NCBI GenBank assembly: GCA_963847445.1
Contig: CAWJZV010000027.1
Coordinates: 96,001-160,000, forward strand
DNA length: 64,000 bases
Reading direction: 5' to 3'
DNA from: an uncultured delta proteobacterium
GTDB taxonomy: Bacteria; Desulfobacterota; Binatia; UBA9968
The notes under the pieces were generated by a model. That model saw only the letters and a program-made list of their open reading frames with translations, ran no database searches and was not told the DNA's origin. How positions within the stretch are numbered: position 1 is the first letter of the stretch; every line of letters begins with the position of its first letter. Both the position numbers and the translations under genes were made by a program. Shown one piece after another: positions 628 to 42,269 of the stretch.

Positions 628-2041
628 TCAAGCGAGCTGGTCGAGCTGCCAAGTGGTCCGCAGGCCATTCTGAATTTGCTTGATGATGATGAACGCTTCT
701 TTTAGATGGCGCCGTTCCAAAACCGATAAATCTTTCAAGCGCACGCTGTGATCGACGGGCGTCTTGGCGGCCAACGCCGCGAGTTGCGCGCGCAAACGGA
801 GCTCAAACAGGGATGGAAAGATTTCCGCCAGGGCGGTGGCGTCGCCGGCGCTCAGCACAAGACCGGACTCTCTGGCGACATCGAGCCGTGCCAACGTCGA
901 GCGTTCACGCGAGCCCGCGGCCAAGGCGGCGACCCGGGCCAGTCCGACGATCGGCGCTATGGCGCTTTTTTTAAGATCGACTTTGCCGTTGTCGGTGCGC
1001 AAGCGATTGAAGAATCCCAAAGGCGGATAAAAATCCAGCGCGCCGCGCGCCAGATGGGACAGAAACCGTCGCTCGGATTTTGCAGCGCCGATGATTTCCT
1101 CCAATGTATCCAGCGCAAGCGTTCCTGCGACCGAGCGAAAATCGAAAAAGATCGCCGCGTCGAGCAGCGCTTGCGGCTTGGGCAGGCTGTATCCAGTCGG
1201 TAAACAGCTCTCGCCATGCCGCGAGCGGCTTGCACCAACGAGTTGCCATGAAGCCGCCGGCGCAAGGCGGGAACCCGGCTTCGATCAAAGCATCGACGAC
1301 TTGCTTGGCCAGAGCGGCGAAGTAAGCGCGCGCGGTGTCGGAGTCTTCCTGGTAAATTAACGCATTGTCCTGATCGGTGAGCAGCGTCTGTTCGAGCCGT
1401 CCCTCGGAGCCGAAGACGATCCAAGCAAATGGTGTTGGCGCGGTGCCGAGTTTTTCGACCGTAAGCGCGACCAAACGTTTGACCAGTGCGTCGTTGAGGC
1501 TGGAGACGATCTTGCTGATATGGATCGCCGCCAGGCCGCTGTCGAAGAGCGTATGCACCAAGGTGGCGATCTCTTCGGCGTAATTCACCGCGTGCGAGTT
1601 CTGCCAGTTTTCAATGACGCCGCGCAAATACAGTGGATTGCGGCCCTGATGGAGCAGCAGATCGGTGGCGCTGACTACGCCAATGATCTTTCCTTCTTCA
1701 ACCACCGGTAGATGATGGATATTTTCATCGAGCATGAGACGCAGCGCGGCGAATACCGGCGCGCCGCAATCGATGGTTACGAGCGGGCGTGACAGCACTT
1801 GGGTCACGGGAGTGTCCGGCCCAAGTCCCGGGGCGAGGACCCGACCGCGCAGATCGCGGTCGGTGACGATGCCCGGCGGCTCGCTGGCGATGAGCATGGA
1901 GCCGACGCGGGCGTTCTGCATGGCTTGCGCGGCTTGTTTGACGCTCACGCTGGCGTCAACGAACAGCGGCGCGCGCTTGATCAGATGCTTGACCGGCAGT
2001 GCCAGGTGGGAGTCGGTGATGGTTCTGTCAGAGGTCGCCAT
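628..2041 (-). CDS. CBS-pair plus DUF294 nucleotidyltransferase-like protein (frameshift near 1185)
   Basis: CBS repeats (GIVTDRDLR, IHHLPVVE), FGSEGRLEQTLLTDQDNAL motif, C-terminal VDLKK..IAPIV..AR domain in ORF 628-1104; usual neighbour of VC_2705-type symporters. Confidence 0.85.
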
Positions 2042-2488: not shown

Positions 2489-4429
2489 TTAGTGGGCGCC
2501 TGCCGGCTGCTCGCGTCCCAGCGGATCGCCGGTGGTCGCTTGGCCGCTCTTCGGGTAGCGCACACTGGCGACCAGTTCTTGGACTTCTTTGGGCGGCGCT
2601 GCGGTCATGAGCGAGACGATCCAGATGACCAGGAAGCCCACCGGTAATCCGAAGACCGCCGAGGCGATGGTCTGGGTGCCGAACCAAGATACGTCCGTAG
2701 AAGCGGCTGCCGATCATGTAATAGGCGGTGACAGCCAGACCAGCGATCATGCCCCAACAGGCGCCGGCGCGTTGGCGCGCTTCCACCAGATGCCCATGAC
2801 CAGTGCCGGGAAAAACGACGCCGCCGCGAGGCTGAACGCCCAGGCGACTAATTCGACGATGATCGCAACTCGGAAGGTCGCAACCTAGGCGGCGATTAGA
2901 GCGGTAACGACCAGCAGGATCTTCGTGATCGTTAGTCGCTTGGTCAGCGAGCCTTGCGGATCGATCACGTTGTAATACAAGTCATGTGAGAAATCGCGTT
3001 GGCGATGGTCAGCAACAAACCGTCAGCGGTGGAAAGCGCTGCCGCCAGACCGCCGGCCATGACCAGACCGGTGATGACGAACGGTAGTCCGGCGACCTCA
3101 GGCATCGATAAAACGACGAAATCGGTCGACTTGACCACGAAGTCCGCCCACTGGACGATGCCGTCGCCGTTCTTGTCGACGACTTCGAAGAGCCCGGCCG
3201 GTTGCCAGAGCGTGATCCAGCGCGGCAATTCGGCGATTTTGGTGCCGACCAATTTGACGTAGATCGTGAAACGGGCGAAGGCCGCATAGGCCGGCGCGGT
3301 AAAGTAAAGCAAGAAAGATAAAAAACAGCGACCATGCCACTGAGACGCGCGCTTGGCGAACCGACGGCGTCGTGTAGTAGCGCGTCAGAATATGCGGCAA
3401 TCCCGCGGTGCCGACCATCAAGCAAAAGGTCAGCGCGAGGAAAGTTCCACATGCCGACGCCGCTTGGCACGGTCAAGTATCGGCCAATTGTCGCGTCGTC
3501 GCTCGCTGCCGGGCGCGGTGGCCTGCTGGGTGGCGGTTTTCGCCGCCGCCTTAAGTTTGTCGGTTTCCGCGTCGGTGAGATTGCCCATCTTTGATCTTTG
3601 CATTGGCCTCGTCGGCGTCCTTCTTCCAAAGAGCGCGCGCGTTTCCTTTTCCTTCGCATCACGCGTGATCTCGATCGCCTTACTATTGTTGATTTGCAGA
3701 TAGCCGTCCGTAAATCAATTCAGGAATCGGAATCGAGAAAAGCTGATACGAAAGATACACCACGGGCACCAGATACGAAACGATCAAGATGATGTACTGA
3801 GCAACCTGTGTCCAGGTGACCGACTTCATGCCGCCGAGCACGGAGCAGAACAGCACGCCAATCAGACCGACAAAGACGCCGATTGGAAAAATCCAAGCCG
3901 ATGAAGCGCGAGACGATCAAGCCGACACCGGTCACCTGGGCGATCAAGATACGTAAAAGAGCAGGCGATGGCGGCGACGACGCCGATGATGCGCGCAAGG
4001 TTGCCACCGTAGCGGGCGCCAAGGAAGTCGGGAATCGTGTAGGCGCCGAATTGACGAAGGTAGGGACCTAGGAAGACGGCGAGCAAAAGATAGCCGCCGG
4101 TCCAACCCATCACGTATGCAAGACCGGCGAATCCTTGGGCGGAAAGCGCGCCGGCCATCGATATGAAACGAAGCGGCCGACATCCAGTCCGAGCCCGTGG
4201 CCATGCCGTTATACACCGCCGGCACGCCGCGGCCGGCGACATAGTATTGATCCGGGTTCGACGTGCGCGTGATGATGCCGATGACGATGTAGATGCCCAG
4301 CGACAGGCCCATGAATATCCAGCCGATCCATTGCGGCGACAGGCCGAGAAATTGCTCTGCGAGGCCGATCAAAATCGTGACGCCGAGAAAACAGACGGTG
4401 TACAGTCCGAAGATTTTTCCTAGACTCAT
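2489..4429 (-). CDS. Sodium:solute symporter, VC_2705/ActP-like (multiple frameshifts)
   Basis: YYVAGRGVPAVYNGMATGSDWMSAASF, GWTGGY, YTIPDFLGARYGG, MVGTAGLPHILTRYYTTPSV and GGLAAALSTADGLLL spread over several frames; stop TAA at 2489. Confidence 0.9.
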
Positions 4430-4432
4430 GGC

Positions 4433-4708
4433 TCAGCCCTCCTCTCGGATGCCGTATTTGAGATCCAGCTTGTTCATCAGGTAGGCGTACACGGCGATCT
4501 CGATGACGAAGATCGCCAAAGAGCCCTGCGCGGCCATGTAGTAGCCGAGGGGAAATCCGAGAAAGGAAAATTGATTGAGGCTGGCGGCCCAAAGACCCGA
4601 GATCAGGTAAGTGACGACGAACCAAACGATCAGCAGGATGGTTGTCAGTCTTACGTTGTAACGCCAATAGGATTTCTTTTGTTCCTCCGAGAGATCAGCC
4701 ATACGCAC
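4433..4708 (-). CDS. DUF4212 small subunit of solute:sodium symporter
   Basis: YWRYNVRL...GFPLGYYMAAQGS...MNKLD pattern; immediately upstream of the symporter. Confidence 0.9.
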   Translation of the reverse strand: MRMADLSEEQKKSYWRYNVRLTTILLIVWFVVTYLISGLWAASLNQFSFLGFPLGYYMAAQGSLAIFVIEIAVYAYLMNKLDLKYGIREEG

Positions 4709-5055
4709 CTCCTCGATGCATTTTTGAATCTGTCGCTGCGAGAGAAATCGTCGATCCTCGATGTAATTCCTTCGAGTGGAGCTCAGCGTTACTCGAAACG
4801 AGCGCTACTCGGGGCGGGTTATGTTACCGCGTCTCATGGGTGGCGCTTGTGAATCGCCACCGGACACATGAGAGCAACCGGTAACGCGGGCTTGTAACAA
4901 AGGCAGAGTTCATGTGTCAAGCGGTATTTTAGGGCGGTCAAATTTTACTTGCGCATCTCAGCCGATTTGGACTATAGACCGAGCTAGCCAGCCTGGGTGC
5001 GAGTTTGTCGGGCGAACAATTACCGCATGGTTTGCTATGCGGCGGACACTAACTG

Positions 5056-7316
5056 TTGGCGGGGACGACGCACTTGTTAAGCTTGCTTAAGGTCGCCGCC
5101 TTTGGCCTATTACTAGGGCTAATGGGAAACATCGCAAGTGTTTACGATGAGGTTCGTGAGCTTGAGGAAAATGTCGGCCTGGGGTTGCTCTTTCAATTAA
5201 GAGGCGCCACAAAAGCTCCAGACGACGCGGTCGTCGTCGCTATCGACCGCGAATCTTCTGAACGCCTCAAGCTCCCGAATAATCCTGATCGCTGGCCGCG
5301 CTCCCTGCATGCGCGCTTGATCGAAGCACTCAACCGAGCCGGCGCCCGCGTGATAGTTTTCGATCTCTATTTTGCCGAGTCCAGGTCGCCAGAGGAGGAC
5401 GTGGCGCTCGCCGAACGCGATAAAGAAGGCGGGAAATGTTGTGCTCGCCGAACAACTGAGGTCGAAAGAAGTTACTTCAGCCGTCGATGCTACAGTAGAC
5501 AACGCCGGGCATAAGATTGTCGAAGCATTAAAACCGATCGAATCGTTCTCGCAATCCGCCTTCGCCACAGCGCCGTTCGTGTTGCCGCGCATGCCGGTGC
5601 GGGTGAGCCAGTATTGGACTTTTCAAACCGATGCGGGAGATACACCGACGTTCCCGGTTCTGGCGCTGCAGCTCTATACGCTCCAAGCCTATCCAGATTT
5701 CCGAGCATTGATGGAAAAGGCGAACCCGAAACACGCAGCGCTGCTGCCGCGCGACGCAAGTTCGGCGATCGAATCGACCGGAGCGTCAAAATTCACCAGG
5801 AACTTGAGACAAGTCTTTCGCAGCGATTCTGACCTCGGCGACGCGTTGGCGCATGTCGCTGTTGGCTCCGGCAGCGATCACAGACCGGTAAGTGCGATGG
5901 TCCATCTGTACACCGGTGCGAATCGCCAATACCTAAATTTCTACGGCCCGCCCCGCTCGGTGACCACCCTGCCTTATTATCAAGCCTTGCAGCTCGGCAA
6001 CGATGGCGCCAACGGCGCGCCCATGGACCTGCGCGGAAAAGCGGTTTTCGTCGGACTATCGGAAAACCTGCTCGCCGAGAGACAAGACAGCTTCCATACG
6101 GTTTTTTCCACAACCACAGGCGTTTTTATCAGTGGCGTCGAAATCGCCGCCACGGCATTTTTGAATCTATTGACGAGCACCTCGGTCAAACCGCTCCGCC
6201 CAAGTTATCAAATCGCTACGCTTCTGCTTTGGGGCATGATCGTGGGGCTTATTTGCCGCTTGGCGCCTCCTCTCTCCGCGGCTGTAGCGGTCATTTTGTG
6301 CAGTACCGCTTATGTGTTCGCTGCCAGCTACCAGTTCCGCGCCAACGCCATATGGTTTCCGATCGTTGTGCCGTTGTTTTTCCAGGCGCCTGTCGGCTAT
6401 GTCGGCGCGCTCTTGTGGAACTTTTTCGAGATCAACAGAGAACGCAAGAGAATCACACAGGGCGCTCGGCTATTATGTGCCGGAAGAAGTTGTCACCCGG
6501 GTGGCTAGAGACATGATCGACATCCGTCGATACGGCCAAACCGTTTACGGCACATGTTTATTTGCCGATGTTGCCGGCTACACGCCGGTTTCCGAATCGA
6601 TGACGCCGCGCGACTTGAGCGAGCTGATGCACAATTATCTTGAGGCGGCATTCGAACAGATTCATAAGCAAGGCGGTCTGGTTGTCGAGCTCAAAGGCGA
6701 CTCGATCCTGGCCATTTGGAAAGGGAGCTTGGGCGAGCTGGTGTTCCGGCAAAAGGCCTGCGAAGCCGCTCTCGACATGGCCGAAGCGGTACGCCGCTTC
6801 AATCAATCCACCGACGCCGCGCTCAAACTCCCTACTCGGATTAGCCTTCATGCCGGTCCGATCTTTCTCGGCAACATCGGCGCCGGAACCCACTACGAAT
6901 ATGGCGTGACCGGCGATACGGTCACCACGGCGGCGCGATTGGACGGCTTAAATAAATACCTGGGGAGCAACATTCTGGTATCCGATGAAGTGATGCGCGA
7001 CCTCGATAAATTCCTGACTCGGCCGGTCGGAGTATTTCTCTTGAAAGGCAAGTCCCAACCGATCGTGGCTCATGAATTGATCTGCCGCGCCGGCGACTGC
7101 GCCGACTGGCAAAAAAAAGCTTGCGAGATATTTGCCGAGGCGCGGCAGGCTTTCGAGCGCCGCCTCTGGGACGAGGCCGATGAGAAATTCATGCAGTCGG
7201 ACCAATTGTTTAATGGCGATGGTGTCTCGCGGTTTTATCGTCAGCTTTGTGCCCAGTATCGCTCGAGCCCGCCACCGGAAAACTGGAACGGCACGATAGC
7301 GATGGCTGAAAAATGA
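5056..7316 (+). CDS. CHASE2-domain class III adenylate/guanylate cyclase (frameshifts near 5415 and 6460)
   Basis: CHASE2 motifs VVVAIDRES, WPRSLHARLI, IVFDLYF, SGVEIAA; three TM helices; cyclase motifs LFADVAGYT, KGDSILAIW, YGVTGDTVTTAARL, LKGKS. Start codon uncertain. Confidence 0.9.
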
Positions 7317-7344
7317 TCGCCGTCGTATTGATGTAAGAAATCGC

Positions 7345-10300
7345 ATGACTGAAAGCAGGCGAATCGTGAAAACGCGCAATCAGAAGTTGGTTGTATTTAG
7401 CTTTGCCGGATTAGCGGTATCGTTGCTAGTCACTGGCGGGTTGTCGGCCTCGATCACCTGCGATCGTTGGGTCGCCAGAATGGTTTCCACCCAAGGTCAC
7501 GTCGAGGTCAGCCGCGCCGGCCAGACGCAGTGGCAGCGGGCTACGCTCAACGACACCTACTGCGCCGGCGACCGCGTCCAGGTGGGCGAAAGAAGCCGCG
7601 CCGACATTGCGCTCGTCAACCGCCCGATCATTCGCTTGGAGCAGAACACGACGATTACTTTGGCGGGGCGTCCGGGAGGAAAGACGCTCGGTCATACAAT
7701 TGCTGCGCGGCGCGCTCTATTTCTTCAGCCGTCTATCGGGCCATCTGGAAGTGTCTACGCCGTTTGTCAACGCCGGCGTCGAAGGCACCGAAGGGCTTGG
7801 TCAAAGTCGAATCCGATAGCACTTTGATAACCATCTTCGAAGGCCAGGTCATCGCTTCGAACCCCGCCGGCAGTCTCATTCTCACGAGCGGCCAATCGGC
7901 GATCGCGCGCCAAGGCAGCGCGCCGGTTCTTGACCACCATCGTGCGGCCGCGCGACGCGGTGCAATGGGCGCTCTATTATCCGCCGGTCTTCGATTTTCG
8001 TCCTGAGACTTTTCAAGACCCAACCTGGCAGGCGGTCGCGGCAAACTCGATCGCGGCCTACAAGCAGGGCGATTTTGCCGCGGCCTTCGAAAGCATTAAA
8101 GGCGTGCCGGATACCATCGCAGACCCGAGCTTCTTCAGCTATCGCGCGGCGCTGTTGTTGGCAGTGGGGCGCAGCGACGAAGCGCGCCGAGATGTCGAGC
8201 GGGCGTTGAGTTTGCGTGCCAACGACAGCGCGGCGTTGGCGCTTCAGGCGATTATCGCCGTGGCGCAAAATGACAAAGACAAAGCGCTCGAGGCCGGGCA
8301 AAAAGCGGTTACGGCAAATCCAAAGTCGAGCGCGGCGCTGATCGCGTTGTCCTACGCGCAGCAGGCCCAGTTCGATCTCACCGGCGCGCGCGCCAGTTTG
8401 CAGCAGGCCGTCGCAGTCAATCCCAACGACGCGCTTGCCTGGGCGCGGCTGGCCGAGTTGCATATGTCCTTCGCCGACCTCGACGACGCCCTCGAAGCCG
8501 CGCAAAAAGCTGCGGCCATCGACCCGAATCTGTCCAGAACCCAGACGGTTTTAGGATTCGCTTATCTGACGCAGGTCAAGACTACCGAGTCGAAGAAGGC
8601 GTTCGAACGGGCAATCGAACTCGATCAAGGTGACCCGTTGCCGCGACTGGGTCTTGGCCTCGCGCTCATCCGAGAGGGCGATCTCGACGCCGGCCGCGGC
8701 GAACTCGATATCGCCGTGAGTCTGGATCCGGATAATTCACTGCTGCGCAGCTATCTCGGCAAAGCCTACTACGAAGAAAAGTTGGACAAGCAATCGGCGG
8801 ATCAGTACGAAATGGCAAAGACCTTGGATCCCAAAGATCCGACGCCCTATTTTTACGACGCCATCCGCAAACAGACCACCAACCGGCCGGTCGAAGCGTT
8901 GCAAGACATGCAGAAAGCTATCGAGCTCAACGATAACCGCGCGGTCTACCGTTCGCGCCTGCGAACTCGATTCCGATCTTCGCCGCTCGCAGCGCCAGCC
9001 AAGCGCGAATCTACAGCGATCTCGGCTTCCAGCAATTGGCATTGGTCGAAGGCTGGAAATCGGTCAACACCGATCCGACGAATTTCTCGGCGCATCGGTT
9101 TCTTGGCCGACTCCTATTCTATCCTGCCGCGCCACGAGATCGCCAGGGTCAGCGAACTGCTGCAATCGCAATTGCTGCAGCCACTCAACATGACGCCGAT
9201 TCAGCCGCATCTGGCGGAAAGCAATCTGTTTCTGATCAGCGCTGGCGGTCCAGCGGCTCTCTCGTTCAACGAGTTCAATCCGTTGTTTAACCGCAACGGG
9301 ATTAATTTTCAGACGACGGGTCTCGCCGGCGAGAATAACACCTACGCTGGTGAAGGCGTGCTCTCGGGAATCTATCAGAAAGCGGCCTTTAGTCTCGGTG
9401 GATTTCACTTTCAGACGGACGGCTGGCGCAAGAACGCGGATCAAAAAGATACCATCGCGAATGCGTTTTTACAGTTGGAACTCTCGCCGCAGACGAGCAT
9501 TCAAGGCTGAAGTTCGACGCAGAGAAACTACACGCGGTGATCTTCAACAGAGGTTCTTTCCTGAAGACTTCTTCCCTGGCCTGACAGATAAAATCGACAG
9601 CTATTCGACTATGCGCCTTGGCGGACGTCACTCCTTTTCGCCAGATTCGATTATTCTCGGATCATTTCATGTTTCAAGATCGTCAGCAGAGGTCAAAAAA
9701 CGACTCGCCTTCGCCGCTGTTGATTCGCGGCGACTGCCTCAAAGCGCTTTGGCTTCGAGCTTCAACATCTGTTTCGCTCGCGTTATTTTAATCTCACGAG
9801 CGGAGTTGGATACTTTGATATCGATGGAGAATTACGGGCGACGGTGAAGGATCACTTCTTCCTCCGCCTTTCTTCGTGTAGCTACCACTGATCTTAGGTA
9901 TCCAGCACTTTAACGCTTATACCTATGCGAACATCAGCCTGTTGAACAATGTCACGATCACTGCGGGGGCAGTTTTGATTACTTGAATGGAGTGAACCTG
10001 CGGATTTTTCGGATGGAAGATGTGCATCAGTTCAACCCGAAATTCGGAATTACTTGGAATCCATTACCAAGCGACGACTGTTCGCGCGGCTGATTTCGGG
10101 TCGTTGAAGAGGACGCTGATCACGGACCAGACCCTCGAGCCGACCCAGGTTGCTGGCTTCAATCAGTTCTTATGATGATCTAAACGGAACAAAAGCTTGG
10201 CGCTACGGCGCGGCTATCGATCAGAAATTTACGAAAGATCTGTTTGGAGGCGTGGAATTTTCCAAGCGGGATTAAAAATTCCACTTGATAGATACTACAG

Positions 10301-10766
10301 TCCAGCCCGGAGACGATCCACGATTTCGACGGCAAAGAGTATCTTGGTCGCACCTACTTATTCTGGACACCCCATCCATGGTTGGCGCTCAGAACGGAAT
10401 ATCAGTATGAGGGATTTAGAAATGACTCAGGGCTCGGGCGAACCGACGGAAGATAAATACTCATCGTGTTCCACTGGGCCTAAATTTTTTTCACCCTTCG
10501 GGATTAAGCGCTGTCGCTGGCAGCCACTACTACAATCAAGGCGGCAGGTTTGTTGGACCTTCGGGCAACTGTTGAGTCGGGTACGACGATTTCTGGACAG
10601 TCGATGCGGCGATCAATTACCGTCTGCCGAAGCGATATGGATTCATCACGATTGGAGCGACTAATCTTTTCGACAAAAAATTCAAGTATTTTGAGGTGGA
10701 TCGTGACAACCCGCGTATTCAGCCGGACCGGATGATTTTTTTCGAATTACCCTGGCATTGCCATAA
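7345..10766 (+). CDS. FecR-domain, TPR-repeat, TonB-dependent-receptor-like beta-barrel protein (NsrA-like); many frameshifts
   Basis: Signal peptide; FecR-like GDRVQVGERSRADI and TPFVNAGVEGTE; long TPR run (7930-8950); barrel patches QFNPKFGITWNP, QTLEPTQVAGFNQ, DFWTVDAAINYRLPKRYG...NLFDKKF readable across frames. Confidence 0.85.
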
Positions 10767-10853
10767 GACAAAACTACGCCTACGGAAAGCGAATATGCCC
10801 AGCGGGAAGCGCGATCCGGTCACTTGACTACAAGCTGCGTGCCGATGGAAGAG

Positions 10854-11096
10854 CTAACTGCAGGGCACCTGTACTTTAAAATCACCTATTACCATAAAGC
10901 ACTTTTTAGGTGATTGTGTGATTTCCGTCTCAAATAAAGTATCGACCGCTTTAAGCCCATAGGGACAAGTCTCGAAGTCCTTTCGTTCCGAAGTGGTTAA
11001 AGGGGTGACTTCGACGTCCTTGCTAATTGCTTCTACGCCGACGATTTTTTTCTCACGAATCACCAGTTTGATTTCAACATCGCCTGGTAGTCCCAT
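10854..11096 (-). CDS. 80-aa protein with C-terminal Cys-pair motif (paralog A), unknown function
   Basis: Strong SD AAAGGAGG before ATG 11096; MGLPGD...SPKKCFMVIGDFKVQVPCS; homologous to the adjacent gene. Confidence 0.85.
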   Translation of the reverse strand: MGLPGDVEIKLVIREKKIVGVEAISKDVEVTPLTTSERKDFETCPYGLKAVDTLFETEITQSPKKCFMVIGDFKVQVPCS

Positions 11097-11230
11097 AAAA
11101 AATTCCTCCTTTATTATTGAGTTACGCTGACATAACCACCAGAAGCAACCGCCTGCAAAAATCAGATAGATTCGACCGACCTCGGCACCCGGTCCCAAGG
11201 CGGATCGGCGTTGAGCGACTACGGACAGCG

Positions 11231-11504
11231 CTAACCACAAGGTACCTGTACTTTAAAACCACCGATGATCATATAGCACTTCGTGGCCGTACCAAGTGTT
11301 GCGTCAGGATCTGGTGTCTCATATATCGTCTCGAGTCGGTCTGAGACCATGTAAGCTACGTCTAAATTTTTTTTTCTCGCTGGATTCCAACTCGCTGACC
11401 TGTACATCTGCAGAATTATCTTGGTGTCTCTCCACATTGGAAATATATCCGTCTTTAAATGTGACTATGAGTTTAACGACTTGCGCTACTGCTGGGTCGA
11501 CCAT
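11231..11504 (-). CDS. About 90-aa protein with C-terminal Cys-pair motif (paralog B; one extra base near 11336)
   Basis: SD AAAGGAGG before ATG 11504; removing one base after HGLRP joins the ORFs to give ...HGLRPLETIYETPDPDATLGTATKCYMIIGGFKVQVPCG, colinear with paralog A. Confidence 0.8.
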
Positions 11505-11836
11505 TGTAAATTCCTCCTTTTTGTTACATGAACGAAATTAACGACAATCGCCTAATGATTGATCAGAACCGACAACGGAAGCATAGCCAACAAAAACCTA
11601 CGAATCCTTGACATGGCCGCGACCGGGCCTGGCTTCGATAGACCGCATCGCTGTGACTTTGAAATTCACGGCCAACTCATACTTCCGCGGACTCTAGTCA
11701 CTAGCAGTCTTTTAAGTCAAGGCCAATTTTCGTGCGTATGCTTTGCGGCGGTTGACGGTCAATCCTTACCTGGCGTAGGTTAAGGCTCGGCCAGTCGCCG
11801 CAAATTTTGCAGAGCAAAAGGAGCACGAAGCCAGCC

Positions 11837-12718
11837 ATGGACAACCGCCGCTACGACTATTCGCCGATCATTCGCCGGCCCAAGATCGAATGGCCTAATC
11901 ATGGCCGTGTCGCTTTGTGGGTGGCGCCGAATATCGAATATTTTCATTACAACATGCCGATCCGCGGCACGGGCAGCAGTCATTGGCCCGACGTGCCGGG
12001 CTATAGCTTGCGCGATTACGGCGCGCGCGTCGGCGTCTATCGGATCATGGACGTGCTCGATAAGTTCAACATCCGCGCCAGCGTGCTGTTGAACGCCGAG
12101 GTCTGCGAGAAGCATCCGCCGATCATCGAAGAGGGCAATAAGCGCAACTGGGAATGGCTTGGCCACGGCCTGACCAACAGCGTCTCGATGCTCGACTATG
12201 CGCCGGAAGAGGAGCGGGCGATCATTCACAACGTCAAAGAGATGATCACCAAGGCCACCGGCAAAGCGCCAAAAGGTTGGCTTGGCCCCGGCCTGGGCGA
12301 AACTCACGACACGCCGGATCATCTGGCCGCCGAGGGGTTTGAATATGTCTGCGACTGGGGCAATGACGAACAGCCGACGGCGATGCGGGTGAAGAGCGGA
12401 CGCATGGTGGTCGTGCCCTACGAGCTGGGGGTCAACGACATCCGTGTCTTTCAGCGTGAGAATCACACGCCGGAGCAGTACTTCCGGATGGTCTGCGATC
12501 ACTTCGACACGCTCTACAAAGACAGCGTCTCGGGCGGCCGGGTGTTATGCTTGCCGCTCCACCCGTTCGTCATCGGCATGCCGTTCCGGATTAAATATTT
12601 GGAAATGGCGCTGGAGTATATGTGTTCGCACGATGGCGTGTGGCGCACGACCGGATGGGAGATCGCCGAGTGGTACTACAAGAACTACTATAAGGATCCG
12701 GGGCGGTTTGAGGGATGA
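11837..12718 (+). CDS. Polysaccharide deacetylase family protein (PuuE allantoinase-like)
   Basis: RPKIEWPN.GRVALWV, RDYGARVG, WEWLGHG, GWLGPG, LHPFVIG motifs. Confidence 0.85.
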   Translation: MDNRRYDYSPIIRRPKIEWPNHGRVALWVAPNIEYFHYNMPIRGTGSSHWPDVPGYSLRDYGARVGVYRIMDVLDKFNIRASVLLNAEVCEKHPPIIEEGNKRNWEWLGHGLTNSVSMLDYAPEEERAIIHNVKEMITKATGKAPKGWLGPGLGETHDTPDHLAAEGFEYVCDWGNDEQPTAMRVKSGRMVVVPYELGVNDIRVFQRENHTPEQYFRMVCDHFDTLYKDSVSGGRVLCLPLHPFVIGMPFRIKYLEMALEYMCSHDGVWRTTGWEIAEWYYKNYYKDPGRFEG

Positions 12719-16602: not shown

Positions 16603-17935
16603 GTGGAATCCACTGCTGAGTTAGCCCGCAACACCTCCAAGCCTAAAATATTCTACGGTTGGTACATCGTTACCGTCGGCTTTCTCGCCAACGTGGCATC
16701 GTCCTTCGCGCTGGCGAGCACGATGAGTATCTTCTTGAAGCCGCTTACCGCTGATTTGGGAATATCCCGTGGAGTTTTTTCATTACTGCGCTCCGGCGAA
16801 GGTATCATTGCCGCATGCATCGCGCCGCTGAGTCGGCACCTTGGTCGACCGTTACGGCGGGCGCTGGTTGATGGTGATCGGCACCGGCATCGTCGCGGTG
16901 GGTTATTTTCTCTTGAGTCATATCGATACCTTTGCTCAATTCGCGGCGATCCGCTTGACGCTGGTGACCCTGGGCGATTCGATGATGGGCTACATGGTGG
17001 TCAACGTCATCATCGCCCAGTGGTTCGTGCGCCGGCGCGGCCGGGCGCTGGCGATCTCGAGCATGGGCGTGGGTTTCGCCAAAGTCTGCATGCCGGTGGT
17101 GGCGGCTTCGCTGATTCTCTGGCTCGGCTGGCGCCAGACCTGGTTCGTTTTCGGCTTGATGACGTTGGGGCTGTTGGTGCTGCCGGCGCTGTTGATCATC
17201 CGGCGCTCGCCGGAGGCGATGGGATTGCTGCCAGACGGCGCGACGGCACCAGTGGCCGGCGCTGACGCGAGCGCGCATCAGTCCGCGGCGCGCATGGCTG
17301 AGACCGGGGCGCAGGACGCGACCTGGACGCGTGCCGAAGCGGCGCGGACGACGGCGTTCTGGCTCCTGGTGATTACCTTTGGCATATCCAGTATCGGTGT
17401 GACTGGCCTCAATCTGCATGTTTATTCCTACGTCACTGACACCGGCTACTCGGCCGTGGTCGCGGCCACGGTGATGAGCATCATCGCGTCGATGCAGCTG
17501 GCTTCACCTTTGGGCTGGGGACTTCTCGCCGAGAGAATCGGCGTGCGCTATGCCGCGACCTTGCGCTTTGTCATCCAGGGCTGCGGATTGGCGCTGGCGA
17601 TACTGACCGGTAATCTGCTCTGCCTCTATGCCGGTTTTTTACTCTACGGCATCGGTCTGGGCGGCAACATGGTGTTGCCGGACATGCTCTGGGCCGATTA
17701 TTTCGGGCGCCAGTCCCTCGGTAAGATTCGCGGTTTAGGTTTGCTGATCTCGCATTTTCTCGCCGCCATCGGCCCGCCGTTTTTCGGCTTTCTCTTCGAT
17801 ATCACCGGCGGCTACGGGCTGTCGTTTGCGATCTTTGGCGCCGTGCTGGCGACTTCGGCGCTGCTCAGTCTCATGTTGAAGCCGCCCGGCAGACTCATTG
17901 AACAATGGAGTATTGGAGTAGTGGAGTGTTGGTAG
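16603..17935 (+). CDS. MFS transporter (frameshift near 16830)
   Basis: KIFYGWYIV start, G.LVDRYGGR motif A, WFVRRRGRA, about 12 TM segments. Confidence 0.88.
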
Positions 17936-40199: not shown

Positions 40200-41213
40200 A
40201 TGGACAAACCATGCTCAGGGAAAATTGTCGTGGTCGCGCTTTTAGCCATCCTGATGGGTTCGGTTCTTTCGGCGCAGGCCCAGGATAAACCCTTGAAGAA
40301 GATCGGCTGGGGCGTAACTTCGCTGTCCGCGTCCAATTGGATTCCGTGGATCGCTAAGGACGCGAAGATTTACGAGAAATACGGACTCGATGTCGAGTTG
40401 GTTCTCGTTAAAGGTTCGGGCCAAACTTCGGCGGCGATTCTCGGCGGCAGTCTGTTTGCCGCGCCGGTGGCGGTGCCGCAAGTCATGATGGCCAATCTCG
40501 GCGGCGCCGATCTGGTAAACATCGCTCACACGGTGCCCGGAGTGCAGAGCAAACTGCTGGTCAAGCAGGAAATTAGACGACCCGAGGATATCAAGGGGAA
40601 GCGGATCGCGACCTCAAGTTTAGGTTCTTTAGGCGATTTTCTTTTTAAGTACATCATTCGAAAGAACGGCATGGATCCGATTCGCGACGTTATCTGGCTT
40701 TCGATCGGCACGCCGCCGGAGAGCGGCTGCAGGCGTTGGCATCGGGGCGGGTGGATGCCGCGGATCTGTCCTATCCCACGGACGCGCAGGGCCTACGCAT
40801 GGGGTATCGGGTTCTCTGGGATGCGCGCAAAGAGGTCGTCTATCCATCCATGTCGGTGGTGACACGCCGAAAAACCGTTCAAGACGATCGCGACACTGTG
40901 ATGCGCATGCTTAAGTCCCACATCGAAGCCATCGCATATTTTAAAACGCACAAAGACTTCAGCATGAAAGTCCTGAGCAAGTATTTACGCACCAACGACC
41001 AGGAGCTGCTTGGAAGGTTCCTACGATATCTTCAGGCAGGATTTCATCTCGGTTCCCTATCCGATCATGAAGGGACTGGAGGCCACTTACGATTACGTCG
41101 CGGCGACCCGACCGGAGATCCGCGGCCGCAAACCCGAAGAGTTCATGGACCCGAGCTTGGTCGCCGAATTGGACAAGAGCGGTTTCATCAAGAAACTCTA
41201 CGAGCAGAAGTGA
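40200..41213 (+). CDS. NMT1/SsuA-like substrate-binding protein (frameshifts near 40720 and 41010)
   Basis: WIPWIAKDAKIYEKYGLDVE, DIKGKRIA..SLGS, ELDKSGFIKKLYEQK. Confidence 0.85.
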
Positions 41214-41260
41214 GACAGACCGCGAGCCTGAAGACGCTCGACGCGAGGAGAATACCGATC

Positions 41261-42269
41261 ATGAAATGGCTAGCGCAGTCGGTCTTCACGAGCTTGGTCG
41301 ATTTGTCTCGCGGCTTTCTCTTCACCCAGCTTCGGCCAGGATAAACCACTCAAAAAGATCACCTGGGGACAGACTTCGATTTCGTCATCCCAGTGGATTC
41401 CTTGGATCGCCAAGGACGCCAAGCTTTATGAAAGAAACGGCCTCGACGTCGACATCGTTTATCTGCGCGGCGGTTCGGGCGATACCTCGAAGGCGATCAT
41501 CGCCGGAAGTATCTTTGCCGCGCCGGTGACCACGGCGACTTTGATGACGGCCAATCTCGGCGGCGCGGATCTCACTACCATCGCGCATACGGTCAAGGCG
41601 GTGCAGACCAAACTGATCGCGCGGCCCGAGCTCAAGCGGCCCGAAGATATTAAAGGCAAACGGCTGGCGATGACCGGATTGGGCTCCCTCGGCGACTTTC
41701 TGCATCGCGTCGTGATGAAAAGGCATGGCATCAATCCCGAGCGCGACGTGACGTGGCTGACCATCGGCGCGCCGCCGGACCGGATTCAAGCGCTCGAAGC
41801 GAAACTGGTCGAAGCGGCGGACCTCTCCTATCCGTTCGACATGCAAGCCGAGAAAAAAGGTTATCGCGTGCTCTGGGACGCGCGCGTCGAAGTGCCGTAT
41901 CCGTCGATGTCGGTGGTGACGCGCAAGAAAACGGTTCAAGAAGACCGCGATACCGTGGCGCGGATGATGCGCGCCCATGTCGAAGGCATTCATTTTCTCA
42001 AGACCCAGAAGGAATCGAGCCTGAAGATTCTCGCCAAATATCTCCGCACCGCCGATAAGGAACTGCTCGAGGGCTCCTACGAAATCTACAAAGAAGATTT
42101 CCTGGCGACGCCCTATCCGATCACCCAGGGACTGGCGACGACTTATGAATACGTCGCGCTGCGCCGCCCGGAGATTTACAATCACAAGCCCGAAGAATTT
42201 ACCGACCCGAGTTTTATCGCCGAATTGGACAAAAGCGGTTTTATCAAGAAATTGTACGCATCGAAGTAG
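41261..42269 (+). CDS. NMT1/SsuA-like substrate-binding protein (5' frameshifts)
   Basis: Paralog of 40200; QWIPWIAKDAKLYE, DIKGKRLA, ELDKSGFIKKLY. Confidence 0.82.

Follow-up and report, generated by a model that had tools for sequence, protein, structure and literature searches.

A family of leaderless Cys-hairpin microproteins encoded beside an NsrA-like receptor and a CHASE2 cyclase in an uncultured delta proteobacterium

What are the two small genes, A and B, that lie in tandem on the minus strand of a 64,000-nucleotide (nt) stretch of DNA from an uncultured delta proteobacterium (contig CAWJZV010000027.1, positions 96,001 to 160,000; hereafter the window), and with what do their products act? 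The initial annotation, made from the letters of the sequence, had described them as paralogous microproteins with a C-terminal cysteine hairpin and had likened them to leader-plus-core precursors. We found that A and B belong to a family of leaderless Cys-hairpin microproteins whose genes are coupled in position to the genes of an outer-membrane receptor and a cyclase, and that this coupling is kept despite very divergent sequence. What is new is the protein family as an extra part of a known signaling module, that of the NsrA/CHASE2 type.

Two tandem genes and their protein family

The features of the two genes are as follows.

10854-11096, minus strand: gene A, 80 amino acids, intact; the receptor-proximal 'A-type' member of the family (ATG at 11096-11094, TAG at 10856-10854)
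10860-10901, minus strand: hairpin codons of A, C66 to C79, CFMVIGDFKVQVPC; C66, P78 and C79 are invariant
11105-11110, minus strand: Shine-Dalgarno sequence AGGAGG of A, 8 nt before the ATG; the motif is also present in orthologous loci
11231-11504, minus strand: gene B, 90 amino acids if read through; the pair's distal member, disrupted by a single extra base
11237-11278, minus strand: hairpin codons of B, CYMIIGGFKVQVPC
11336-11337, minus strand: position of the one surplus base in B (codons for Pro56/Leu57), located by DNA alignment with three of three intact orthologues
11513-11518, minus strand: Shine-Dalgarno sequence AGGAGG of B, read from the sequence

A and B are two real tandem paralogous genes. 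Their products were 44% identical over 59 residues (E = 1e-16), which bears out the relationship first proposed, and AAAGGAGGAATTT stands in front of the A ATG and the B ATG alike, as had also been noticed. Both proteins end in C-x12-C, and the translated C-terminal end of A is SPKKCFMVIGDFKVQVPCS. AGGAGG was found 7-9 nt 5' of each start, distant members of the family included. The open reading frame (ORF) track starts A at a TTG at 11240 and gives 128 amino acids, an over-extension that the initial annotation had recognized; every A orthologue starts with MGLPG and has AGGAGG in front. Gene B starts with the ATG at 11504-11502, its first frame stops after ...HGLRPTRDDI, and its C-terminal part (...LETIYETPDPDATLGTATKCYMIIGGFKVQVPCG) lies one frame over; when CCGA is read as one step, the 90-residue protein results. 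That B is split by one extra base was likewise borne out, since B reads AGACCGACTCGAG where the intact orthologues of loci L017, L011 and L014 (3/3) read AGACC-YCTCGAG. The L017 product is intact, 89% identical to read-through B over 88 columns, and has HGLRPLETIYET in a single frame. A programmed frameshift was rejected because the shift is not conserved, all three orthologues being in one frame. The GC content of A and B was 0.44, compared with 0.57 in the window, and their GC content at third codon positions was 0.44, compared with 0.69-0.79 in the neighboring genes. In L006 and L007 the small genes differed from their surroundings in the same direction and to a smaller extent.

The family is small, rare and without annotation, and its members are leaderless proteins of about 70-100 residues. 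In a set of 5.8 billion proteins, 20 of 20 candidates were homologues of A at 50-100% identity, all unnamed or 'hypothetical' and without a Pfam domain. The profile search of 1.84 billion representatives returned 20 clusters at E ≤ 1e-3; two long matches (P0032, 3712 amino acids, and P0039, 852 amino acids) were set aside and excluded from all alignments. Among 35 aligned members the only invariant columns were C66, P78 and C79 (A numbering), and the C-terminus was PC plus 0-3 residues; in the alignment of the 43-member superfamily the two cysteines were the sole invariant columns, and the Cys pair that had been seen in A and B is more than chance. The GG of the hairpin turn was not invariant (GG, GD, GK, AG, GR, DG or GA). 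Most members have exactly two cysteines and the median pI was 5.2. Once distant members were included the Cys spacing ranged from 11 to 13, and one branch carries four cysteines (CC-x11-C-x2-C). The most conserved part was the C-terminal 14 residues and the variable part was the linker before them, while the N-terminal 55 residues were conserved. The ratio of nonsynonymous to synonymous substitution rates (dN/dS) among the A-type orthologues of nine loci was 0.08-0.48 with a median of 0.25, which indicates purifying selection; it was obtained from 30 of 36 pairs, dS being saturated in the six pairs with L016. The paralogue tree placed the receptor-proximal genes of nine loci in a single A-type clade (support 93/95), and the distal partner fell into at least four subtypes between loci.

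No signal-like hydrophobic segment was found in 54 members, in which the highest 15-residue Kyte-Doolittle mean was 1.6, and the view that a Sec signal is lacking was therefore upheld; by hydropathy only, the highest 12-residue mean within the first 30 residues was 1.95. Neither an RR motif nor a lipobox was seen in the family alignments. Searches of A and both halves of B against Pfam and NCBIfam returned nothing except a chance match to Tantalus (E = 0.16), and Pfam searches of 35 members at E ≤ 10 returned eight families, each matched by only one member. With PADLOC one member was matched (E = 0.05), and the best sequence profile match in the PDB had E = 0.2. No known family was matched in the Pfam, NCBIfam, PADLOC, PDB, Foldseek and VIA-align searches; the outcome named in the initial annotation as refuting, a match to a known cytoplasmic family with unconserved cysteines, did not arise. 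The proteins thus form a further microprotein family without annotation, one whose genes come out of gene callers too long or in two parts.

The AlphaFold2 model of A, built on a 35-row alignment, had a predicted local distance difference test score (pLDDT) of 77 and a predicted template modeling score of 0.51. It has strands at residues 9-14, 17-23, 54-59, 65-70 and 73-77 and a helix at 35-43, and the invariant C-x12-C brackets the last two strands, which are predicted to form a hairpin. Members of the family begin with a beta-hairpin, which is followed by a helix, a strand bearing a YGLRP-like motif and a linker that varies; the hairpin with C-x11-13-C, which is invariant, closes the protein. 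A model of the distant branch was of low confidence (pLDDT 61) and was used for the order of secondary-structure elements only, which was the same as in the A model. Foldseek gave no match in the PDB at E ≤ 1e-3, a wide VIA-align search matched none of 48,161 chains at Z ≥ 2, and the ESM Atlas held no usable match for A (for P0043, scores were 0.84 at most and TM was below 0.5). That the monomer model has no match among solved chains may mean that the protein is an oligomer, or simply that the model is weak. The beta-grasp sulfur carriers (ThiS/MoaD) have a similar order of elements and were rejected as relatives, there being no VIA-align or Foldseek match and the C-terminus being PC plus 0-3 residues instead of Gly-Gly.

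The adjoining receptor and cyclase genes

One conserved neighbor of the pair had been overlooked in the initial annotation, namely an NsrA-like receptor gene that follows a CHASE2 cyclase gene.

7345-10766, plus strand: NsrA-like gene with signal peptide, FecR, TPR and C-terminal outer-membrane barrel, placed by tblastn with intact orthologues of 1124 and 1134 amino acids
5056-7316, plus strand: CHASE2 adenylate/guanylate cyclase gene (by Pfam, ORFs 5056-5514 and 5372-6508 have CHASE2 and ORF 6312-7316 has Guanylate_cyc)

In the window, in locus L006 (genome G237) and in locus L007 (G353, a metagenome-assembled genome labelled Syntrophobacteraceae), the receptor gene and the small genes are convergent, the small genes lying at its 3' end. 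Among ten metagenome loci, the NsrA-like gene converges directly downstream in nine, and the contig of the tenth ends 98 nt past the small gene. Two or three tandem copies of the small gene were present in all ten loci that have at least 400 nt of upstream DNA. The cyclase gene, whose intact orthologues encode 755 and 828 amino acids, lies upstream of the receptor gene in the window, L006, L007 and L008. Pfam matched CHASE2 and Guanylate_cyc in the pieces of the window gene and in the L006 and L007 orthologues; in the L007 receptor orthologue it matched FecR at 77-169, TPR repeats and, weakly, OMP_b-brl_3.

Apart from the receptor and cyclase genes, no neighbor was common to the loci when the flanking ORFs of the window, L006 and L007 were searched with Pfam. 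Besides these two, the flanks gave matches to GST, a solute-binding protein, a deacetylase, an M20 peptidase and a sigma-54 activator. In none of the three loci did Pfam find a radical-SAM enzyme, cyclodehydratase, lanthionine synthetase, peptidase or ABC exporter in the flanks, in keeping with the earlier remark that no modifying enzyme or exporter is visible nearby.

The receptor matched Sinorhizobium meliloti NsrA by BLASTP in its FecR-TPR half (E = 3e-18) and its barrel (E = 3e-8), with 24% identity. When plasmids were searched by tblastn, 88 records were matched, of which 81 were from Sinorhizobium, Ensifer or Rhizobium; one record, S. meliloti pSymB, is annotated 'nsrA: signal perception protein' and has cyaK adjoining. 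NsrA and CyaK carry Pfam domains equal to those of the window-type receptor and cyclase. By these comparisons the receptor is a distant NsrA homologue, and the module is predicted to be of the NsrA/CHASE2-cyclase type. As in the S. meliloti NsrA-CyaK system (and CyaD1/D2), the receptor of about 1130-1200 amino acids combines FecR, TPR and a C-terminal barrel, and its gene is adjacent to and co-directional with that of a CHASE2 class III cyclase. The systems differ in that the sequences are only 24% identical, that the order is nsrA-cyaK there and cyclase-receptor here, and that a small Cys-hairpin gene does not stand beside nsrA. According to the available parts of two reports, NsrA and CyaK raise cyclic AMP (cAMP) on the free protein uL2, which is present in plant, yeast and bacterial extracts (PMC7529298, PMC13001267). 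The S. meliloti ligand in those accounts is thus a basic ribosomal protein of another organism, whereas the small proteins here are acidic and self-encoded.

Two other systems couple related parts. In a gene cluster of Campylobacterota, as far as it is described in the accessible text, a CHASE2 adenylate cyclase is accompanied by a FecR-domain outer-membrane protein, a TPR protein and a phosphodiesterase, and has been subject to horizontal transfer (PMC9239204). It resembles the present module in coupling a CHASE2 cyclase to a FecR-domain outer-membrane protein and TPR repeats, and differs in that the TPR protein is separate and a phosphodiesterase is included; a small protein is not mentioned in that text. 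The Burkholderia BiofilmReg operon likewise pairs a FecR-domain envelope protein with a CHASE2 sensor, in that case a LysM-FecR periplasmic protein with a CHASE2 histidine kinase, but from the portion of the report at hand its output is a histidine kinase and response regulator, and barrel, TPR and small Cys proteins are absent (PMC5192318). No description of small proteins with NsrA/CHASE2 systems was found in the literature searched, supplements and the original NsrA paper being outside its scope.

NsrA-like genes (E ≤ 1e-30) were present in 31 of the 90 genomes of the taxonomic family, or 29 of 88 without the unpublished G347 and G330. With the A2 profile, the small family was detected in three of the 90. 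It was matched in two of 301 genomes in a sample of the class, and in a phylum sample of 401 in the genome of the window alone. We examined the DNA downstream of 23 further NsrA-like genes (L025, L026, L029 and L030-L049), and in eight of these loci a convergent ORF of 73-95 codons with GGAGG in front was found. The proteins that they encode start with K-[MIL]-[VL]-I-T-V-D-x-x-T-G, and hairpins such as CVYWIGGRPVKVC, CITLNLPGGGSYTIC or CCSWQRKNGQLVYTCVPC form their ends; their alignment matched that of the family in hhalign with a probability of 93.8% (E = 1.8e-7, 67 columns). The original family profile alone detects two of the eight (E = 4e-6 and 4.6e-4); the count of eight came from a profile built on those ORFs and is descriptive, not an independent test. 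In the large protein set the distant ORFs had 18 further relatives, all unnamed.

Gene remnants were seen at two loci. In L010 (1130-1282) a remnant of the last ~50 NsrA-like codons separates the first small gene of a three-gene array from the second, and a small gene and the 3' end of the receptor gene seem to have been duplicated there as one unit. In L014, upstream of the distal gene at 744, the leader holds at ~620-660 the 3'-end remnant of another family gene (...GTGCCTTGCGGTTAG, VPCG-stop), which is fused to the conserved leader start and is the trace of a deleted copy.

Candidate roles of the small proteins and the extra base in gene B

As the small genes always adjoin the receptor-cyclase pair, their products may be the missing protein partner of the sensor. 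The explanation that we favor as a whole, with a probability of about 0.5, builds on the leaderless family shown above and holds that the frameshift in B is an artefact and that the small proteins are partners of the receptor-cyclase module; this last part we infer less firmly than the artefact. By analogy with NsrA/CyaK, which responds to a free protein outside the cell, A and B would then most likely be cognate ligands or modulators of the NsrA-like/CHASE2 module. Once outside the reducing cytoplasm, a disulfide would staple the C-terminal hairpin, the NsrA-like protein would recognize the stapled hairpin, and this recognition would set the output of the cyclase. The route to the envelope of a protein without a signal peptide could be lysis, vesicles or another route. 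Thanatin and tachyplesin are disulfide-stapled beta-hairpin peptides that are secreted, cationic and stand-alone. As in these peptides, two cysteines bracket a short hairpin with a Gly or Asn-Gly turn, and one branch of the family has four cysteines; they differ in that the hairpin is here the tail of an acidic 80-residue protein with no signal peptide, and its disulfide is a prediction.

Such a role would matter because most inputs of CHASE2, a widespread sensor domain, are unknown, and the locus supplies a candidate partner of the receptor in a small protein that is self-encoded and genetically linked to it. The factors recognized by CHASE2 are not known according to Pfam text quoted in the part of PMC5192318 that was available, and the only NsrA/CHASE2-cyclase system studied, going by the excerpts at hand, responds to a protein of another organism (PMC7529298, PMC13001267). 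The small protein is short enough to be synthesized or expressed and offers handles in its Cys pair and hairpin, so that binding to the receptor would be directly testable in a reconstituted system.

Several findings weigh against this reading. With no signal peptide, lipobox or nearby transporter gene, nothing indicates that the small proteins leave the cytoplasm. The pI of most members is in the acidic range (median 5.2), and the known NsrA ligand is basic, electrostatic recognition having been proposed in the accessible part of that report (PMC7529298). There is no such small gene beside S. meliloti nsrA-cyaK, and no small homologue was detectable in 15 of the 23 further NsrA-like loci, from which it follows that the receptor does not need the small protein. 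Because the genes are convergent and not co-transcribed, the linkage is positional only. The Cys spacing of 11-13 is better fitted by a loose clamp or a metal site than by a disulfide in a fixed cross-strand register. Finally, the four or more distal subtypes argue against one obligate A-B heterodimer. In the tree a single A-type clade is combined with at least four distal subtypes, a pattern more in keeping with a repertoire of signals than with a fixed heterodimer.

The main rival, possible though we hold it tentatively at best, is that A and B are cytoplasmic, alone or as dimers. In a dimer the two cysteines of each chain would together bind a metal or serve as a redox switch. The genes would then belong to the cyclic-nucleotide pathway, as its output or as a modulator within the cell, and would not encode a receptor ligand, and the finding would shrink to a new small family of unknown role. 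An export signal was found in none of 54 members, at least two copies are always present, the distance between the cysteines varies (11-13) and there is a four-Cys branch, all of which a cytoplasmic role would accommodate. The monomer model is not compact enough for a match to any of the 48,161 chains (Z ≥ 2), a result that an obligate oligomer might give, and in S. meliloti, as stated in the part of the source consulted, target genes of cAMP lie beside a CHASE2 cyclase gene (PMC5498481). When an A-type protein was co-folded with a B-type partner, ipSAE was 0.47 (median of three runs) compared with 0.00 for the best control; the pLDDT of the partner was at least 72 and the runs agreed in at least 90% of contacts. 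On calibration, 58 of 80 solved complexes and two of 110 mismatched pairs had come up to the mark, but scores of 0.60 or less were given by only seven of the 80 solved complexes and by both passing mismatches, and a pass in this range is more often wrong than right unless the pairing was likely beforehand. The predicted complex accordingly gives weak support to A-B pairing. The linkage of the small genes is to the 3' end of the outer-membrane receptor gene and not to the cyclase or a regulator, which speaks against a cytoplasmic role. The loci share no conserved regulator that binds cyclic nucleotides, inspection by eye only of the upstream sequences revealed no CRP-type site, and two cysteines per chain are not a known metal-binding motif.

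The second rival, which we regard as rather unlikely, is that B and the receptor and cyclase genes are true pseudogenes and that the module is decaying in this strain, A being intact by chance. The NsrA-like gene of the window lies in at least seven frame pieces, with frame changes at ~7668, 7793 and 7930 and several more after 9500, and the cyclase gene lies in three. At least 11 frame changes fall within 5.0-11.4 kb, compared with two candidates in the other 52 kb. Decay would agree with this contrast and with the patchy occurrence of the locus, the small family being present in three of 90 genomes of the taxonomic family and in none of 30 other genomes of the genus; NsrA-like genes are also fragmented in several other genomes. 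An unrelated SSF symporter gene next door, at ~2.7-4.4 kb, is likewise in pieces, which counts against this reading. Nucleotide identity to intact relatives is high throughout and large deletions were not seen.

Contigs of four public runs were aligned to positions 5000-11800 of the window. In contigs 96.8-98.6% alike from three of the runs (X1, X6 and X8), single bases were missing at 5411/5413, 6457/6458, 7670, 7793 and 7930/7933, and these coincide exactly with the points of frame change in the window. Each change that was checked was a one-base insertion relative to contigs 97-99% alike, which tells against pseudogenes. In seven other genomes (G311, G334-G337, G341 and G363) the NsrA-like gene lies in two to six pieces, and all of these are assemblies of few contigs (10-60), which suggests a shared type of sequencing or assembly. 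It is therefore likely that the ~9-kb stretch of the window is a low-quality consensus and not the product of gene decay. The extra base in B is probably an assembly error because this stretch is full of single-base insertions that break the symporter, cyclase and receptor genes alike, and B would be functional in the organism. Two observations pull the other way: the aligned contigs stop short of 11336 and do not cover the extra base in B, and insertions are much more frequent at 2.7-11.4 kb than elsewhere in the window, as would fit decay of an accessory island. Among the public runs listed, none contained more than 0.26 of the words of the window, and no RNA run was among those listed as containing them, the share of one possible RNA run (X20) being 0.05.

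A more specific and quite improbable form of the partner reading casts the small proteins as 'kin-damage' signals of the cell's own making. Produced in bulk and without an export system, they would stay reduced in the cytoplasm and be released only when sister cells burst. Outside, the two cysteines would oxidize and staple the hairpin into its active shape, which surviving cells would detect through the NsrA-like receptor, and the CHASE2 cyclase would be switched on. The tandem, mix-and-match paralogues would be strain-specific sets of signals. If this were true, NsrA/CHASE2 systems, whose natural inputs are largely unknown, would gain a dedicated encoded ligand, and the proteins would be a redox-gated alarm signal.

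The precursors of peptides that are made on ribosomes and modified after translation (RiPPs) and of double-glycine bacteriocins are small, occur in arrays of tandem paralogues and carry a conserved C-terminal segment with cysteines. The members of the A/B family are likewise small and tandem with a conserved C-terminal Cys segment, and the proposal of a leader and a core would have them cut, possibly modified and exported as a peptide signal or bacteriocin. The conserved N-terminal part, variable linker and sharply conserved terminal 14-mer, the arrays with different paralogue subtypes side by side, like those of pheromone or bacteriocin loci, the strong translation signals and the AT-richness of the genes (GC 0.44 compared with 0.57) would all suit it. 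It is nonetheless very unlikely and is not supported, since no maturase, peptidase or exporter was found in the three loci searched and the pattern of conservation is inverted: the core and not the leader is the most conserved, and the putative leader, the N-terminal 55 residues, is conserved, predicted to be folded and under purifying selection. The only conserved neighbors are the receptor and the cyclase. A double-glycine bacteriocin or pheromone precursor was rejected because the GG is not invariant, lies at the hairpin turn rather than before the core, and is not accompanied by an ABC exporter in the loci.

Expression signals and minor observations

The genome of the window has a second NsrA-like gene, in two pieces (G000, contig C41, 19445-22757, minus strand; locus L042). 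It is followed by a co-directional ORF of 251 codons with a signal-like N-terminus and 19 cysteines, and small hairpin genes are not present there. Of the 15 loci in which no small homologue was detectable, at least seven have instead a co-directional ORF that is 250-316 codons long, contains 10-20 cysteines and has a signal-like N-terminus. The Cys-rich ORFs 3' of the NsrA-like genes in L031-L034, L036 and L038 are similar to that of L042. Nearby in L032, L033 and L046 are ORFs with a CPFC motif, which may be thioredoxin/DsbA-like. In L045 (G337) a convergent ORF of ~100 codons with GGAGG in front (110-505 as oriented, minus strand) lies 3' of the NsrA-like gene. It was matched by no profile; its N-terminus is family-like (FRVDLETGKMRITD) and it ends in ...CNIKHGGCTIRIINNREVLVW, with C-x6-C and an end that is not at a Cys.

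From ~2700 to 11400 the window is dense in single-base insertions and looks like a low-quality or low-coverage segment of the contig, and the genes from 11.8 kb onward are mostly whole. An intact DUF4212 gene (4433-4708) stands beside the broken symporter gene. Possible frameshifts were seen at 16603-17935, where an MFS transporter ORF begins at profile position 55 and overlaps the upstream ORF, and at 40200-41344, where an NMT1-like ORF spans profile positions 10-119 of 216 and overlaps the downstream ORF. A gene for a CBS and DUF294 nucleotidyltransferase (971-2041, minus strand) lies 3 kb from the cyclase gene, and its C-terminal part looks frameshifted. Proteins of this build often include a cyclic-nucleotide-binding domain, which was not seen in the window gene.

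The expression signals predicted for the small genes are the following.

11691-11720, minus strand: sigma-70-like promoter TTGACT-18-TAGAGT, from a consensus scan
10777-10791, minus strand: terminator-like hairpin and T-run, 3' of A and before the converging receptor gene; from the consensus scan only, and weak (one site, compared with 1.5 expected in shuffles)

The small-gene array thus has its own predicted promoter and what appear to be strong ribosome-binding sites. CTTGAC and GACTA.AGTC were invariant in six of six aligned loci, several of which are close kin. The position of the promoter implies a leader of ~180 nt before B, and the predicted leader is conserved among B-type loci. A riboswitch in it was considered and dropped, the 192-nt leader folding no better than shuffles (z = -0.24), and Rfam gave only a chance lncRNA match (E = 7.1) on 10700-11900. 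A gene for a GAF-sigma54-activator-HTH_8 regulator lies upstream of the pair in L006 (11105-12664, minus strand), in G237 only. A -24/-12 promoter upstream of the small genes was not seen (by eye only), and the sigma-70-like promoter fits instead. An inverted repeat GTGA-N9/10-TCAC (e.g. GTGAATTTCAAAGTCACA) was found in the window at 11640-11660 (minus strand) and in L011, L014 and L017. It lies ~25-45 nt into the predicted leader, has a spacing unlike that of the canonical CRP site, and could be an operator or a small RNA hairpin.

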